A DNA stretch of 24,654 bases from a virus: UHGV virus genome UHGV-1451352; one strand, 5' to 3'. Each line of letters starts with the position of its first letter. The stretch's first letter is position 1. Both the position numbers and the translations under genes were made by a program. Of the stretch, positions 1,451 to 22,445 are shown in pieces. The notes beneath the pieces were generated by a model. That model saw nothing but the letters and a program-made list of their open reading frames with translations. It did no database searches and was not told the DNA's origin.

Positions 1451-3700
1451 TTAATATGATACAGATATCTCACCTGTTGAGAAGTTCCCTGCGGATCCCT
1501 CTCTACTGCAAAGGGCATATTTTTTATCAACAACATCCCTTGAGTCAGTTGCCACTATCTCATGGCATATATTATTTGCCGACCTATGTACATACGTATT
1601 TACTATCGGCTTAGATGAAGATGAACCCTTAGCTCTCGAACCATCGATAAGACAGTCAGACACTGACATAAATCCTGAAACAAGGTTGTTACTCACATCC
1701 CAATCTATGGCCATTTTGTCAAAACAAACACTGCCAAGCATATATGTGTTTCCACCAGAATAGCCTACAAACCTACGTAATACACCACCATCATGCTTGA
1801 TGTAGCTCCTTGTCATTCCTGATGTGATATTCATATATGCAATATCCATATTGCACTCAATTCCGTAAAGGCAAGATGCATATTCTTGCCTGTATCCAAC
1901 ATAACATACAACTTTACATCCAGTTGATTTAGCTGGAGTCAATTTAATTACAGGAATATCTCTTGTAGATGCATCATGATATGAAATTGCTAACTCAAAT
2001 CTTGCGTCTTTACCATTAAAAGTGCTACCAGTAAAATCTATCAATGACGGCATTTTAAAGTCACGCAAAGGTGATGGCTGTGTTTTAAAGTTATTTTTAA
2101 ATGATAAAATATTGAGTGTTACCTCAGAAGGCCAGTATATATTCGTCTGTACAATTATATTCTTCGGAAGATGTAAAGTGCGCGGCTGGACAGGGTTCCC
2201 GGACGCGATAACATTGTCTGAACGACACAAAATCATATCCACCAAACCGGATGAACCCTCTGGAATACGAACGGATCCACCACGGACTATGAAATCACCT
2301 TTATGTTCACCGTAATCCGTACGTACTCCAAACGGCCCTATGTGAGAATTGATGATCTGTGTGGCCTCGTCGAACGCCCCAGTACCAACCATGACGCCTC
2401 CAGGTATCAGGCAATTATCAACAAGAATCTTTGAGCACCCATAGTGCATGTGAAAGCTATAAAGATTACTGTCTCTCACAACCACATCCCTGCAATAGTT
2501 GCCATCAATAGACCTCCACCCCTTACCCACTTCGCAGCCGATAAAAGTATGTTTAAGGGTGTACTCCATAGCTACGGTATAACGAGAATTATTATCCGTC
2601 TGCGTAATACCCGCACTCGTTAATCTCCAGTTAACTCCGTAGGTGGTAGAGCTACCAAAAATATTAGAATCTGTAGCTGTCATCCCCATGTCATTAAAGT
2701 AAACAACCTCAACATCAACTAAAGAACGTTGGATATCAAAAGCATAGCGTGAAAATTGACCAGTGAAACGCGGCAATACAATTTTATTACGCTTATTTGG
2801 TAGCTTAAATAACGTACAAGTTACGGGGTCGTTGTAAGTATTTTTAAGACTGTAAGCCAATTCCCCTGACTTAGTCATAAAGTTCACTTCACCTTTATAT
2901 TTTGGGCTGAATACACCACCAAGCAACCTATAGAGATCAACCTCTGTTGGACTTATTATTTTGACGATCGAATTACCCCACCCTGTTAAATCCTCAACAC
3001 AAGAAAAAACTGAGGTTAATTCGTTCAATGGGTATGTTGATATATTAACTTCCTTTATATAACTATCATCATCCCTTTCATCTTTATACACAACCTTTCC
3101 GTTTGTTAAGTGGAAAGTACAATTACTCAAATCAAAATCACCATATAGATGTGTTTCTTTATCTATGGTGAAAGTTAGTGGCACGCTTGAGTAGATTTTC
3201 ACTGGATTTCCTTTAAACTCAGCAAAAACAGAATTCAACTGATCGCTATTTCTTTCACCATCAGCAGCAGCTATATCGTATACAGAAAGCCTGACCTCTA
3301 ACCCCCCTATTATTTTGTAACCGTCTGGCGAACTAATTTCATCCATGAACCTTTGCTCAAACTGGTCAGGGTCATACTTCAGCACATTCGGAAAATAGAA
3401 CTGCTGAGAACCGTACGCATCGTATACAGCCATAGAATGGCCTTGCACAGTTACGAATTTGGCAATCTGTCCGTTATATACAGGATACCCGCCAGCGTTA
3501 ATGATGATTGGCTGTGCAACAGGAACGAGAGAACCGTCTTCGTTTTCCACATAAACCTGAATCCGGTTTTCAGGATTTACCGGGTCAGTGTCAATTTTCC
3601 CGATATAAATTTTTCCATTGGCTACGGCTTTAAAAGAACGAGCCATAGTGAAGAGTTGCGAAGGCATCGATACGATCACATTGGCTGTAATGTCTGTCAT
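1451..3700 (-). CDS. Tailspike (P22 gp9-like N-terminal head-binding domain joined to a divergent receptor-binding body), 749 aa
   Basis: The first ~115 aa ([17 protein letters not shown]...[19 protein letters not shown]...[15 protein letters not shown]...NVLKYDPDQ) match the P22 tailspike N-terminal domain as I recall it. The remainder is AT-rich and unrelated to the P22 body. GGAG ribosome-binding site 9 nt upstream of the ATG. Confidence 0.85.
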
Positions 3701-5805: not shown

Positions 5806-6129
5806 GTGTATACAACAGTTATCGTGATAGCTATCGCACTCATTGTGGTTCAGTACCAACTGGCATCTTTAAAACAAAAGATATCTGACCTCAAGACTGA
5901 GAACGAAGCACTTAAAAACTCAATAAAAGATGAGAAGAACAAACTATCATTCACTATATCTGATATTGAGCAATCCATTGAAATTATTGAGAATAATATT
6001 AACAGACTAAAAAAAGAAGATATTCATGAAATCAATGACAATATCAAGGATTTGAAATCTTGGCTTAGGAATGTAGGACAAATCGCCACATCAACACGAG
6101 ATAAGCTCAATCCATCCATGGATGATTAA
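5806..6129 (+). CDS. Small membrane-anchored coiled-coil protein (107 aa), AT-rich moron
   Basis: GTG start 5 nt after a strong AGGAGG ribosome-binding site. N-terminal hydrophobic helix (TVIVIAIALIVVQY) followed by a K/E-rich heptad-like region. About 30-35 percent GC by eye versus roughly 50 percent in neighbours. On the opposite strand to the late operon. Confidence 0.55.
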   Translation: MYTTVIVIAIALIVVQYQLASLKQKISDLKTENEALKNSIKDEKNKLSFTISDIEQSIEIIENNINRLKKEDIHEINDNIKDLKSWLRNVGQIATSTRDKLNPSMDD

Positions 6130-8256
6130 TTACTCCTGTGCTATTCCGCTTAGCGACGCTACAATGCCAGCCCTCGCTAAGCGATTGAACTCTTCGTTTC
6201 CAACTGCATCACGTATTGCTTTTACGGCGGCTTTATTTGCCATAAATCTGCGTTCCGCCGCCGCTAATGCTTCTTTACTTCCGCCAGCTCTTACTGCTTT
6301 CGTGGCTTCCTGAACTGCTTTCTCTATCGCATATCGACCGCTACGCGTGGTGGCAATTTTAGATACAGCACCTTTTAACCCGGCGCCAACTAAAGCACCT
6401 GCGGCCGCGCCTGCAATGCCCCCACCTGCTCCACCAACAATGGCACCCGACGTTGAGTTTGCAATTGCATTTAATACTGTTGAGGTAACGTTGGATAAAC
6501 CAGCGTCAAGATCACGTAGAACATTGGCTGTTCTCCCTGTTCTTTCAATATACTGCTGAGGCTTCACTGCCGCTCTTGCAAGAGTGCCATATGCATCAGC
6601 AATTCTTCCAAGTTCTGAGGAATATCTGCTAATGGCTTTTACATTTTGTGGGGTAAGTATCCCTGCGATATGGTTAATTCCTGCTGCATCAGATTTGCCA
6701 CCACGTACACCATGCGAGATAGCATCCTGCAACATTGATGATATAGCAGGAACACGCTCTGATTCTGGCAGCGCGCGGATCATAGAATGGAATCCAGCAG
6801 GACCATTAAGACCTTTAGCTGACGATGATTGAAGAGATTTTACTCCATTCGTAATCAGTGCATCTGTTGCCAAATCACGCCCAAAAACAGACTCTGCACT
6901 CTCTTGTGCGGATAGCCTCGCTTTAGACAGATCATTAGCTTTTTGCCAGTCATCAAGAAATCCGCCGTTTTCCGCCATTGTGCGCATATCATCAGTAATT
7001 GCCCGGCGTATTTCCCCTGCTCTCCTTGCCGCATTTGCCTCTCCGCTACGCTTATATTTTTGCTCAGCATCAGCAAATTTCGCTCTCCATGCTTTCATGC
7101 CATCAAATGTTACTCCACCTTGATTGTTTGCCTGAACAAACTGTTTCATTTCAGGAGTAAGCGGTATGCCAGCAGATCGCTCTGCCTGAATAACGGCATT
7201 ACCATTTAGCATTCTTGCTTTTTGATTTGGCATTGTTGACCGCACGTCATCCCATGCCGCGCGCTCGGCATCCTTCATCTGATCAAGATTTTGAAGAATC
7301 CTTTGTTTTATAGCCGCACTTTTTTCTGATGCCGTTCCAGATGCGGCCCCAAATTCATCAAGGTTTCGACTTAACTTTGATGATATTTCGTTAAATGCTG
7401 CCTGATGGGCATCCTGAACAATTCCTGGTGTTGATGCCAATGCGCCTTCGGCTTGTGCAATTCCACGACTTCCAGATCGCATTCCTGGTGTTAATGCGTT
7501 TATATCAATTCCAGCAGACTCAGCCGCTTTTGCTACATCTTCGGACACATTAGCGGCCTGACTGGCAATTGACTGACGCCCAGCACCTGACTTTGCCATC
7601 CTGGAAACATCATTAGCAGAATTCAGTGCTGCACCACCAAGAGCCTGTGAAACTCTTGGCGCAATAACGCGCCCGACACCTGAAAGAACGCCTTGAGCAC
7701 CAATATTGATACCACCGTTAATGGCAGCATTTTGTGCAAAGTCGCCCTCCTGATTTGCAGCATCAGCAAGAGAACCTGCAATCATGTTTCCTGCGGAACC
7801 GATATCTCCAGCGAGCTTTGCTGTCGCTCCAACAGCTTTTGCCGCTGTGCCAATTGGCAGGAGATACCCACCAATTGTTTCACCGGCTTGTGCGTAAGGG
7901 TCTGTCGGTCGATCGACAGGGCGATAAACATCATCCAAAACCTTGGGGCCACCAAGCCCCTGACTGATTGCATTAATCAGACTTGCGCCACCCTGCAATA
8001 CGTCAAATGGTATGTTTACCAGACCACGACCAGCCTGTTCTGCAATTTGCCCTGCACTTTGACCACCAGTGAGCCAATCGCCAGCTTGTTGCATCAATGA
8101 TGGTTCTTCCCGTGTTGGTGCATTATTGGCCTGATTAACTGTTTGTTGCTGAACAGCCTGACCAGCAAAATACTCATCAATGGCGGTGCCAATATCTTCG
8201 GTGCTCGTACCATCAGGAAAGGTAAATGTCTTACCGTTTGCAGTTACTTTCATCAT
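6130..8256 (-). CDS. Ejection (injection) protein, P22 gp16-like, 708 aa
   Basis: Position and order match P22 (7-20-16). Gly/Ala-rich low-complexity protein. N-terminus [16 protein letters not shown] matches my recollection of gp16. Confidence 0.8.
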
Positions 8257-20222: not shown

Positions 20223-20688
20223 GGTTGAATAGCTCCTTGATACGAGAGCGTCGCTTATCGCGATCTCCCTTATCAGGTGTCACGTCTTCAACTTGCGACT
20301 GCTCTTTGAGGCCCAAATCACGGGCGATGATGTTAGCGTTGAGAAGGTCAGCGGCTGCGCCAGAGAATTTCTGGTCGTAGATGACCTGCTCTGCTCGCGT
20401 AACGACTTCAGATAAATCTTCTCGCAGGCGATATGTGCGCCATGTTTCAAGCGTCACATCAATGAAAAGAGTGAGGCCTGTAATGGTCATCGCTCGCATC
20501 TTGGCGATAGGCTCTTGTATCACTTCACCCTGATACGAGAACGCCTTCATCTCCCATAGCGGGTTAGCTTCCACCCACTCGAAGTATTCACAACAAGCAG
20601 CCCACAGCGCCTCAGGCGATTCGAATTTAGGATTTCGCCCATGACTACTGCGGGCCTCCCAAAATCGGTTGCCCTTTGGTGCTGCCAT
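20200..20688 (-). CDS. Terminase small subunit (P22 gp3-like), 162 aa
   Basis: Same length as P22 gp3; contains the pac sequence within its coding region. Confidence 0.9.
20400..20421 (-). other. pac site (headful packaging initiation) inside the small terminase gene
   Basis: The - strand reads GAAGATTTATCTGAAGTCGTTA, which matches the 22-bp P22 pac site as I remember it, within 1-2 positions. It encodes ...EDLSEVVT... of the small terminase. Confidence 0.65.
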
Positions 20689-20693
20689 ATTGA

Positions 20694-21182
20694 TTATTTC
20701 CCTTCTGCTTGCTTCCCAGTGGTGAACGAATCAACGCTGCCGCCGGAATAGCAGTCAAGATCAATTGCGACTTGTACCGCTTCTCTCGCATTTTTGCCAC
20801 AGTGCATGGCAGTGCGAGCAATCAGCCCACCACTACCAATGGCGTATGGTTCAACCTGTGGCGAAATACTCGCCCGCGTTTCGCCTTTCTCTTTTGAGAT
20901 GATGTAAGCACGACCAGCACCGATGATAGCAAGCGCTGTGAAAGAGAATGTCGGGAGAAATTCTGATGCATACGTCAGGTTGTTCTTAAGCAGTTCCTGC
21001 AATTCCATCTCCGCGCCGCAATCACCAGAACAACCTAATGCAACCACTTTACTGCCGCAAACCTCCCACCCAGATTCTGGCGGTGTGTAAATCTTTTGTT
21101 CTGTATACGAACACACAACATCACCAGATGTTGCCTGGGTGTCAGATGCCAGGGTCTTTCCATCCCATGCAATAGTGGTCAT
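20694..21182 (-). CDS. HslV-like N-terminal-nucleophile threonine peptidase (proteasome beta-type fold), 162 aa
   Basis: Begins Met-Thr-Thr-Ile (Thr1 after Met removal). Aligns by eye with E. coli HslV through D.QAT.G, KV.A.G..G.....L.EL and the AIGSGG motif. No HslU-like ATPase gene is adjacent. Confidence 0.65.
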
Positions 21183-21183
21183 A

Positions 21184-21426
21184 TCATGCTCCGGTGGTGA
21201 ACAGGTCTAACGCTTCCTTCGATTTACGCACCGCTTCGATAGTGCGGGTCGTGATATCTGAATTAGCGCCGCCTGACTGGAAGTGAATTTTAAATAGCTC
21301 AAGCTTCAGCTCGTCAGTGCCAATGAATTGAAATGCTTCCTCTGCGGCTGCGTTCTGGTTCATGACCAGTTTGTAAATCTCTAACTGGAATTTCTGTTCT
21401 TCAGTCATGGGAATAATCTCTGCCAT
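21184..21426 (-). CDS. Small hypothetical protein (80 aa) translationally coupled to the HslV-like gene
   Basis: GGAG ribosome-binding site 8 nt before the ATG; its stop is 1 nt before the HslV-like start. Predicted helical, acidic. Confidence 0.55.
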   Translation of the reverse strand: MAEIIPMTEEQKFQLEIYKLVMNQNAAAEEAFQFIGTDELKLELFKIHFQSGGANSDITTRTIEAVRKSKEALDLFTTGA

Positions 21427-21529: not shown

Positions 21530-21891
21530 CTACTGTTCGCTTAGCTTCTGCTTCAGCAAGTAACCTTCCAGCATCCAGATTTTATTCACCGCATTTTCGC
21601 GGGCGATCTTACGCCCGATCTCCTGGTCAAAGTTCTCCGGGCTGGCGCACGCAGACTCGCCGGTTACGGTAAAGCCGTTCTCCAGCACAAGAACGCAGAA
21701 GGTCAGCAGTTCGAGTGATTGCGGGCCGGTTCAGGCTCTTCCTGCTTCAGCCACAACGGTGAGCTGCGATATCCGTCCGCGCCGGTAAAGTAAAACTCGC
21801 CTGAGATAACAGCTTCAATGCGTTCCGGGGTAACACGCGCGGCCGTTTTGCCTTTCTCAACGATTTCTTTTTCGATTTGCTGTTCGTTCAT
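21530..21891 (-). pseudogene. Frame-disrupted conserved phage gene (about 116 codons if restored)
   Basis: Listed ORF 21703..21891 (MNEQQIEKEIVEKGKTAARVTPERIEAVISGEFYFTGADG...) stops at 21700. A second frame stays open to a TAG at 21530-21532 and reads ...LTFCVLVLENGFTVTGESACASPENFDQEIGRKIARENAVNKIWMLEGYLLKQKLSEQ. This is consistent with a single indel near 21715-21740, or a sequencing error. Confidence 0.45.
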
Positions 21892-22401: not shown

Positions 22402-22426
22402 AAAAAAGCCCGACAGAAGTCAGGCT
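22402..22426 (-). terminator. Intrinsic terminator after the spanin genes
   Basis: On the - strand RNA: GCCUGAC-UUCU-GUCGGGC hairpin (one G-U pair) followed by UUUUUUAUU. Confidence 0.55.
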
Positions 22427-22445
22427 CTGTTATTTGGGTGACGAA

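Follow-up and report, generated by a model that had tools for sequence, protein, structure and literature searches.

A probable PPH-family threonine peptidase encoded upstream of the terminase genes of a P22-like prophage

In this study we analysed the virus genome UHGV-1451352 (24,654 nucleotides, nt; referred to below as the window), a segment of a P22-like prophage that runs from the integrase through antiterminator Q, and in it two adjoining genes which lie immediately upstream of the terminase genes and encode proteins of 162 and 80 amino acids (aa). Judging from its sequence and structural model, the larger protein is a phage-encoded N-terminal nucleophile (Ntn) threonine peptidase of the proteasome/HslV type, with predicted activity. 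It is a further member of a family that was described bioinformatically in 2021 under the name PPH and that already has a name in phage annotation. The smaller protein is the DUF2560 protein, the homologue of P22 ORF80, and is a neighbour of the peptidase, not its dedicated partner. Taking all the evidence together, we consider it moderately probable that the PPH protein is an accessory peptidase which is made late and acts without an ATPase, and that the DUF2560 gene is simply the gene preceding it.

Fold and active site of the peptidase

The original prediction, made from the DNA sequence alone, had described a 162-aa open reading frame (ORF) with a Met-Thr-Thr start and three Ntn-hydrolase landmarks. 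These were located at residues 14-18 (DTQAT), 45-53 (KVVALGCSG) and 114-119 (AIGSGG). When the protein was used by itself, none of the Pfam models was matched and a single-sequence search of the PDB gave only marginal similarity (E 0.16); therefore, a family profile was needed. The profile built from 55 homologues retrieved HslV and proteasome beta subunits with E values of about 1e-8, and 22 of these homologues individually matched the Pfam Proteasome family. The 162-aa protein also matched PHROG_1040 ("peptidase HslV family") at 4e-38. The AlphaFold2 model obtained with the 55-homologue alignment had a predicted local distance difference test score (pLDDT) of 95.6 and a predicted template modelling score of 0.89, and every top Foldseek match of this model was a proteasome beta subunit, HslV or BPH (probability 1.00). 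These results support the HslV-like Ntn threonine peptidase proposed originally: the protein has the four-layer alpha-beta-beta-alpha fold of the proteasome-beta/HslV Ntn hydrolases, which characterizes the proteasome/HslV superfamily (MEROPS T1, Pfam PF00227).

The catalytic set consists of Thr2 (Thr1 once Met is removed), Asp14, Lys30, Gly50/Gly53, Gly116-Ser117-Gly118, Asp143 and Ser146-Gly147, and equivalents of the proteasome nucleophile Thr and of Asp17, Lys33, the oxyanion Gly, Ser129, Asp166 and Ser169 are all present. Conservation was scored in the 162-aa protein together with 226 diverse relatives (50%-identity representatives and matches of the first search; n = 227). Position 2 is Thr in 221 sequences and Ser in 5; Asp14 was found in 224, Lys30 in 226, Gly53 in 225, Gly116 in all 227, Gly118 in 226, Asp143 in 201 and Gly147 in 220, with Ser or Thr at position 117 in 212. 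Thus, the set is conserved in 88-100% of the sequences, the exceptions being position 50 of the GxxG motif (Gly in 169, Ala in 52) and position 146, which is occupied by Ser, Thr or Cys in 226. The start "MT" is shared by 216 of the 226 relatives. The original prediction had named two outcomes that would speak against it, namely an unrelated fold or poor conservation of the Thr1 and GSGG equivalents, and neither was obtained. Moreover, the median ratio of nonsynonymous to synonymous substitution rates (dN/dS) of the peptidase gene, calculated for 36 pairs of close homologues, was 0.10, which indicates strong purifying selection; the gene is therefore not a chance ORF.

The protein belongs to PPH rather than to HslV

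PPH was described as a proteasome homologue of approximately 140 residues, occurring in tailed phages and prophage contexts; PPH and RPC are unique in lacking helix H2, and PPH also lacks a propeptide and the C-terminal elements S12/H5 (Fuchs et al. 2021, PMC8665760). The protein from the window has a Met-Thr start without a propeptide. In its model (secondary structure assigned with DSSP), H1 covers residues 57-66 and is followed by coil up to a strand at 81-88, then by H3 (119-127) and H4 (132-142), i.e. there is no helix between H1 and the strand at 81 and H2 is missing. The same was seen in a hidden Markov model (HMM) alignment, in which HslV carries a 15-residue insertion exactly where PPH is devoid of H2. 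The C-terminal end is formed by a strand (150-154) and a disordered tail, with neither S12/H5 nor an extra domain. The length of 162 aa falls within the range of the family (136-232 aa, median 150), and the genomic context is a P22-like prophage here and a phage or prophage at every locus examined. The likeness to PPH also extends to the compact single domain with Thr1/Asp17/Lys33 and the oxyanion Gly, to the lack of a partner ATPase, and to carriage by tailed phages and prophages of Proteobacteria. On these grounds, membership of the protein in PPH is very probable.

The protein differs from a typical PPH (about 140-150 aa) in its length, which is due to a hairpin insertion of about 10 residues between S3 and S4, a small insertion near residues 96-101, and the short disordered tail. 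Its position in a P22-like late operon was not specifically described in PMC8665760. The spacing from the catalytic Lys to GxxG is 9-10 residues in 137 of the 227 sequences, which is typical of PPH, and 19-20 residues in the window protein and around 50 relatives; in the AlphaFold2 model the extra residues (approximately 33-47) form a small beta hairpin. The S3/S4 insertion site adjoins the active site, and it is there that the specificity lid of connectase is placed (PMC8665760). Conceivably, the hairpin could tune the choice of substrate.

In the HMM search of the family, 478 50%-identity representatives were obtained at E<=1e-30, a number that rose to 8978 at E<=1e-10 and to 12379 at E<=1e-3, and nearly all of the top 150 were 136-170 aa long and aligned from residue 1. 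This suggests, at the level of sequence similarity, that PPH is a large family, the weaker tail of which may include HslV and proteasome proteins.

The NCBIfam HslV equivalog model (NF003964) scored only 13.4 bits against a cut-off of 137, and for this reason the protein is classified by sequence as not being HslV proper. It shares with bacterial HslV (ClpQ, the peptidase of HslUV) the Met-Thr-Thr start, the Thr1/Asp/Lys triad and AIGSGG. In contrast to HslV, however, it has retained the proteasome-like motif D-x-x-S-G-G, it has no H2, a helix that helps to form both the pore and the HslU-tail pocket, and no hslU lies beside its gene. It is also shorter than host HslV, as had been stated (162 versus 176 aa in Escherichia coli), and it is phage-borne and sporadic, whereas HslV is a core heat-shock gene. 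BPH and Anbu differ from PPH in that both keep H1-H4 and both are chromosomal bacterial genes, while PPH is smaller and viral; the long acidic pore loop of BPH and the long C-terminal helix of Anbu are further features with which PPH contrasts.

The suspicion that the gene might represent a known accessory family proved justified, since it corresponds to PPH (PMC8665760) and PHROG 1040. A gene 88% identical to it, in Escherichia phage Dewey, is already annotated as "peptidase HslV family protein", and the label "peptidase HslV family" is also attached to genes of SPN3US-like jumbo phages, Kagunavirus and Klebsiella phages. Our search of the literature on phage HslV-like and PPH proteins returned mentions in annotation only and no functional work.

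No ATPase partner was found near the peptidase gene

The statement that no HslU-like ATPase is adjacent to the peptidase gene was upheld. Among those ORFs of the window that were scanned or compared, which are only part of the total, none encodes an AAA+ or HslU-like ATPase. A phmmer search of 1838 ORFs surrounding 88 PPH loci with an HslU-like query (gp116 of phage RAY) found nothing, and the Walker-A proteins among these flanking ORFs, where they could be classified, are large terminases. Likewise, no AAA+ family was encountered among 112 neighbours of PPH genes scanned against Pfam.

In HslV, the C-terminal tails of HslU insert into pockets between the subunits, which are lined by Phe54 and Phe57 (H1), Ala79/Lys80 (H2) and Gln114 (PMC6429459). 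In a manually set register, Phe54 and Phe57 are replaced in the window protein by Met59 and Gln62, at two positions that are variable in the PPH family. Since H2 is missing and these pocket residues are variable, canonical docking to the HslU of the host appears unlikely from sequence and model. Thus, we found neither of the two hallmarks of an HslV-type partnership, i.e. an HslU operon or partner and an HslU-tail pocket that includes H2.

Gp116 of Erwinia phage RAY, reported as belonging to the "HslVU protease family" and localised to the phage nucleus (bioRxiv 10.1101/2023.02.24.529968), was considered as an experimentally studied relative of PPH and rejected. The record of this nucleus-forming jumbo phage (L097, 6353-8062) shows that gp116 is a 569-aa HslU-like AAA+ ATPase. 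A jumbo-phage PPH had matches in 60 phage records, none of them that of RAY. It seems, therefore, that RAY has no PPH/HslV-like partner and is the mirror image of a PPH without an ATPase.

The DUF2560 gene is a neighbour of the peptidase gene

The original prediction regarded the 80-aa protein as an acidic, helical partner of the peptidase. The first part of this description is correct, as the protein has a net charge of about -5 and its AlphaFold2 model (pLDDT 82) contains four helices; a fold search of the PDB gave no match at E<=0.001. The DUF2560 family is narrow (the matches found were 59-100% identical, and those with names were enterobacterial), and the dN/dS of its gene is 0.06, which indicates purifying selection. 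Only annotation mentions, and no functional work, were found in the literature on DUF2560. The protein resembles P22 ORF80 in its place upstream of gene 3, within a segment showing around 98% nucleotide identity between the window and P22 over gene 3 and ORF80; the difference is that behind it P22 has, in place of the peptidase gene, a spacer of 204 nt which contains a small ORF without annotation.

The proposed partnership did not hold. Among 5426 complete E. coli genomes, 2325 match the queried region, mostly partially and with the DUF2560 gene included, and only 10 possess the peptidase gene in this arrangement. The DUF2560 and PPH genes of phage Dewey are separated by a 95-aa ORF. DUF2560 is not found next to the PPH genes (52-61% identity) of Pantoea, Citrobacter and Morganella prophages; these genes are located directly after the lysis genes and before the small terminase gene. 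Clustering of the ORFs of the 88 loci revealed that adjacency to DUF2560 is limited to 2 of 33 PPH clades. We did find DUF2560 next to PPH in 17 related prophage or viral loci, upstream of two different types of terminase; such shared travel of the unit is linkage, not dependence. Neither protein matched any of the defence models of PADLOC-DB 2.0 at E<=0.1. Given the difference between 2325 and 10 E. coli genomes, the lack of the peptidase in P22, and the occurrence of distant PPH genes without DUF2560, the two genes do not co-occur obligately, and the DUF2560 protein is the product of the preceding late-operon gene rather than a dedicated partner.

Organization of the locus and its place in the late operon

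The gene order of the window is integrase, tailspike, antirepressor, injection proteins, head genes, terminase, PPH and DUF2560, a Gp49-family gene, Rz, lysozyme, holin, and antiterminator Q. The features of the locus are listed in Table 1. The statements made originally on the DNA itself (a 1-nt gap between the genes and a site immediately upstream of the terminase genes) agree with the sequence, except that the minus-strand orientation of both genes had been omitted.

Table 1. Features of the peptidase locus (positions in the window)
Feature	Position	Strand	Remarks
PPH-family proteasome/HslV-like N-terminal-threonine peptidase (predicted), 162 aa	20694..21182	-	M-T-T start
DUF2560 protein, 80 aa, P22 ORF80 homologue	21184..21426	-	Pfam PF10834 (1.1e-43), PHROG_571
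DUF2560/PPH junction	21180..21196	-	GGAGCATGATATG on the minus strand; GGAG Shine-Dalgarno-like motif, TGA, one base, ATG; read directly
PPH/gp3 junction	20686..20696	-	TAA stop, 5 nt (TCAAT), gene 3 ATG; read directly
Small terminase subunit gp3, P22-type, 162 aa	20200..20688	-	About 98% nucleotide identity to P22; relatives match Pfam GP3_package
Large terminase subunit gp2, 499 aa	18723..20222	-	P22 comparison; relatives at neighbouring loci match Terminase_6N/6C

The TGA stop codon of the DUF2560 gene (21186-21184) is separated by 1 nt from the PPH start codon at 21182, and the GGAG motif is placed around 6 nt upstream of this ATG, within the 3' end of the 80-aa gene. The PPH gene ends with TAA at 20696-20694, and the ATG of gp3, the next late-operon gene, which is in turn followed by gp2, begins 5 nt further on.

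A simple scan of the minus strand from Rz to the terminase genes found no sigma-70-like promoter, and the sole strong terminator-like hairpin in this span comes after Rz. Thus, with the lysis cassette on one side and the small terminase gene on the other, the PPH gene has neither a promoter-like nor a convincing terminator-like site of its own. Because of this, and of the 1- and 5-nt junctions, the gene is most simply regarded as part of the Q-dependent late operon, its product being synthesized at the same time as the proteins for packaging and for the head. The hairpin (22405-22428, minus strand) has a 10-bp stem followed by a T run; it is located just 3' of Rz, inside the late operon and upstream of the Gp49, DUF2560, PPH and terminase genes, and is presumably read through by Q-modified polymerase.

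The peptidase gene had not been recognized as a described P22 gene, and rightly so. In P22 (AF217253; locus L002, 3490-3693), the place corresponding to positions 20689-21183 of the window is taken by the 204-nt spacer between ORF80 and gene 3, which is unrelated to the peptidase gene. It contains an ORF of about 58 aa, unannotated in AF217253. We considered whether this spacer is a deletion remnant of the peptidase gene and rejected this idea, as the 204 nt show no similarity to it. According to the spans of the phage records, other P22-like phages have inserts of differing lengths at the same spot, and therefore the ORF80/small-terminase junction acts as a slot for cassettes, which are unrelated to the peptidase gene in other P22-like phages. 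Among the phage records matching the region, only that of Dewey contains a gene more than 60% identical to the peptidase gene. The PPH gene is thus a rare accessory cassette in a variable slot of the late operon.

Gene neighbourhoods of PPH in other phages

In a broader survey, the 1838 ORFs from the 88 loci (33 PPH clades) were clustered, and 31 representative loci were inspected. An Sf6-like small terminase, seen in 6 of 33 clades, was the only neighbour that recurred from clade to clade, and no conserved ATPase, inhibitor-like or adaptor-like family was detected as a partner. By our own count, PPH is situated no more than three genes from a terminase, portal, scaffold or capsid gene in about 14 of the 31 loci. 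In temperate phages of enterobacteria, the gene immediately downstream of it encodes a small terminase, which belongs to any of four families; in Klebsiella phage VLCpiS13a, PPH lies between TerL and the portal gene, and in L089 ahead of the scaffold and capsid genes. Further PPH genes were located in a tail module, ahead of holin genes or, in jumbo phages, amid tRNA genes. The survey points to late expression as a recurring theme, without identifying a partner.

Several loci deserve separate mention. In three podovirus-like IMG/VR contigs (L077, L078 and L093), PPH is inserted between a T7-type portal gene (PF12236) and a gene for a 310-aa scaffold-like protein, followed by the capsid gene, and is preceded by a conserved 92-aa ORF. 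In HK97-like phages, this position is usually held by the prohead protease. Two IMG/VR jumbo-phage contigs contain tandem PPH paralogues beside a DUF7484 protein (180 and 216 aa in L046, around 6001-7200; 244 and 178 aa in L074, around 6001-7300), a hint that the PPH assemblies of some phages might be hetero-oligomeric. At one of the 31 representative loci, a gene no more than three genes away from PPH matches the Pfam family Tad2-like (Thoeris anti-defence 2; 1e-24), i.e. at least one PPH gene adjoins a counter-defence gene. In the prophage of E. coli Res13-Lact-PEB17-18 (L007, 4580-5005), a 141-aa protein encoded beside the pair carries the RefSeq name "ubiquitin carboxyl-hydrolase", which might be taken as a link to ubiquitin-like systems. 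Its gene precedes that of a PBSX-type large terminase directly, at the place of the small terminase gene, and the protein at the same position in the sister prophage L008 is labelled hypothetical; therefore, we treated the name as a likely mis-annotation.

Possible function of the peptidase

In the account that we favour, the methionine aminopeptidase of the host would expose Thr1 of PPH, the protein would assemble into a ring-type oligomer, as do HslV and BPH, and, as a threonine peptidase independent of any ATPase, it would act on a host or phage substrate (protein or peptide) late in infection. Since PPH is absent from P22 and most of its relatives, it would serve as an optional fitness (accessory) function and not as a morphogenetic necessity. 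We regard the mechanistic part of this account as about evenly balanced between right and wrong. Several points weigh against it. It is we who infer the peptidase activity, the oligomeric state and the substrate, and late expression is in turn inferred solely from the gene order and a simple promoter scan. Enzymes of the proteasome family can be ligases (connectase) or can be inactive on their own (HslV without HslU), and therefore an intact active site is no proof of ATPase-independent proteolysis. The loss of H2 might block the formation of a ring. In addition, membership in PPH (type sequence WP_042125023.1), as against AAH, CPH and RPC, was judged by the defining features of the family, with indirect support from the thousands of MT-start proteins of 136-170 aa retrieved by the profile and from the PHROG_1040 match.

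A role in the virion is rather unlikely, whether PPH were to process head or packaging proteins as a proteasome-type protease or to travel inside the capsid and be ejected into the next host, where it would destroy a defence protein. Such a role would fit the proximity to virion genes in about 14 of the 31 loci, the sites directly upstream of four small-terminase families in temperate phages, between portal and scaffold genes in the T7-like contigs, between TerL and portal in VLCpiS13a and before scaffold and capsid in L089, as well as the implied late co-expression with structural genes. However, P22 and most P22-like phages assemble without PPH and with uncleaved head proteins, so PPH is not required for morphogenesis here. 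The lysis-terminase junction of lambdoid phages is a general slot for accessory genes, and position alone is thus a weak argument. Other PPH genes lie among tRNA genes, in a tail module or ahead of holins, and our literature search yielded no evidence from virion proteomics. The original prediction had further suggested that the peptidase might use the HslU of the host, and such a hybrid HslU-PPH protease would redirect ATP-dependent degradation. This possibility is disfavoured, and we consider it distinctly improbable, in view of the complete lack of H2, a part of the HslU-tail pocket, the presence of Met59 and Gln62 (variable in the family) in place of Phe54 and Phe57, the low score with the HslV equivalog model, and the distribution of PPH among phages of very different hosts.

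It is very unlikely that PPH is no hydrolase in vivo, i.e. that it works as a connectase-like transpeptidase/ligase or as a catalytically idle decoy which poisons the HslV rings of the host. Connectase has a two-helix lid, whereas the insertion in the window protein is a short hairpin, and most PPH proteins are without this insertion (9-10 residues at this site in 137 of 227); the near-invariant catalytic set argues against a non-catalytic decoy. The possibility that DUF2560 and the peptidase form a functional pair (toxin/antidote or regulator/protease) is largely refuted by their distribution, and we give it hardly any credence. A pair would explain the 1-nt coupling, as a TGA-N-ATG junction does exist, and would agree with the adjacency in 17 related loci upstream of two terminase types and with the purifying selection acting on DUF2560 itself. 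Against this, tight junctions are normal throughout the late operon here, the DUF2560 region is far more frequent in E. coli than the pair, P22 has DUF2560 without the peptidase, an additional ORF parts the two genes in Dewey, and the PPH genes of the Pantoea, Citrobacter and Morganella prophages lack DUF2560. The confinement of the adjacency to two clades and the lack of PADLOC matches point in the same direction, and the toxin/antidote-like pair suggested originally thus finds no support.

A more far-reaching reading can also be formulated, which we consider fairly improbable: PPH would be a functional viral mini-proteasome that needs no ATPase and is produced alongside the virion proteins, and it would either be loaded into the capsid or, in the final minutes of infection, destroy a specific host protein (e.g. 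one involved in defence or in the stress response), with the S3/S4 hairpin of this enterobacterial subclade setting its substrate specificity. If true, this would be the first function assigned to any viral proteasome homologue, and in a genetically tractable P22-like phage. By sequence, the PPH copy of the window is catalytically intact, and its location in a P22-like prophage of E. coli or Salmonella makes it a convenient test system. As regards annotation, the gene should be named "PPH-family proteasome-like peptidase" and not HslV, and the adjoining DUF2560 gene should not be taken as the partner of the peptidase.

Other genes of the window

Two further genes of the prophage are worth mentioning. 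The tailspike gene (1451-3700, minus strand) encodes a protein of 749 aa, of which residues 1-113 represent the P22 head-binding domain. The remaining part, of around 630 residues, matched no Pfam family, and therefore the receptor-binding part is unlike that of P22 gp9. Upstream of the DUF2560 gene, a gene of the Gp49/Sf6-gene-66 family (21530-21891, minus strand) is broken into ORFs of 62 and 52 aa, and its homologue in the prophage of E. coli ET729 is uninterrupted (126 aa). Relative to this homologue, the copy in the window has a net deficit of 19 nt, located in a middle section that aligns poorly, and is therefore probably a frameshifted pseudogene.

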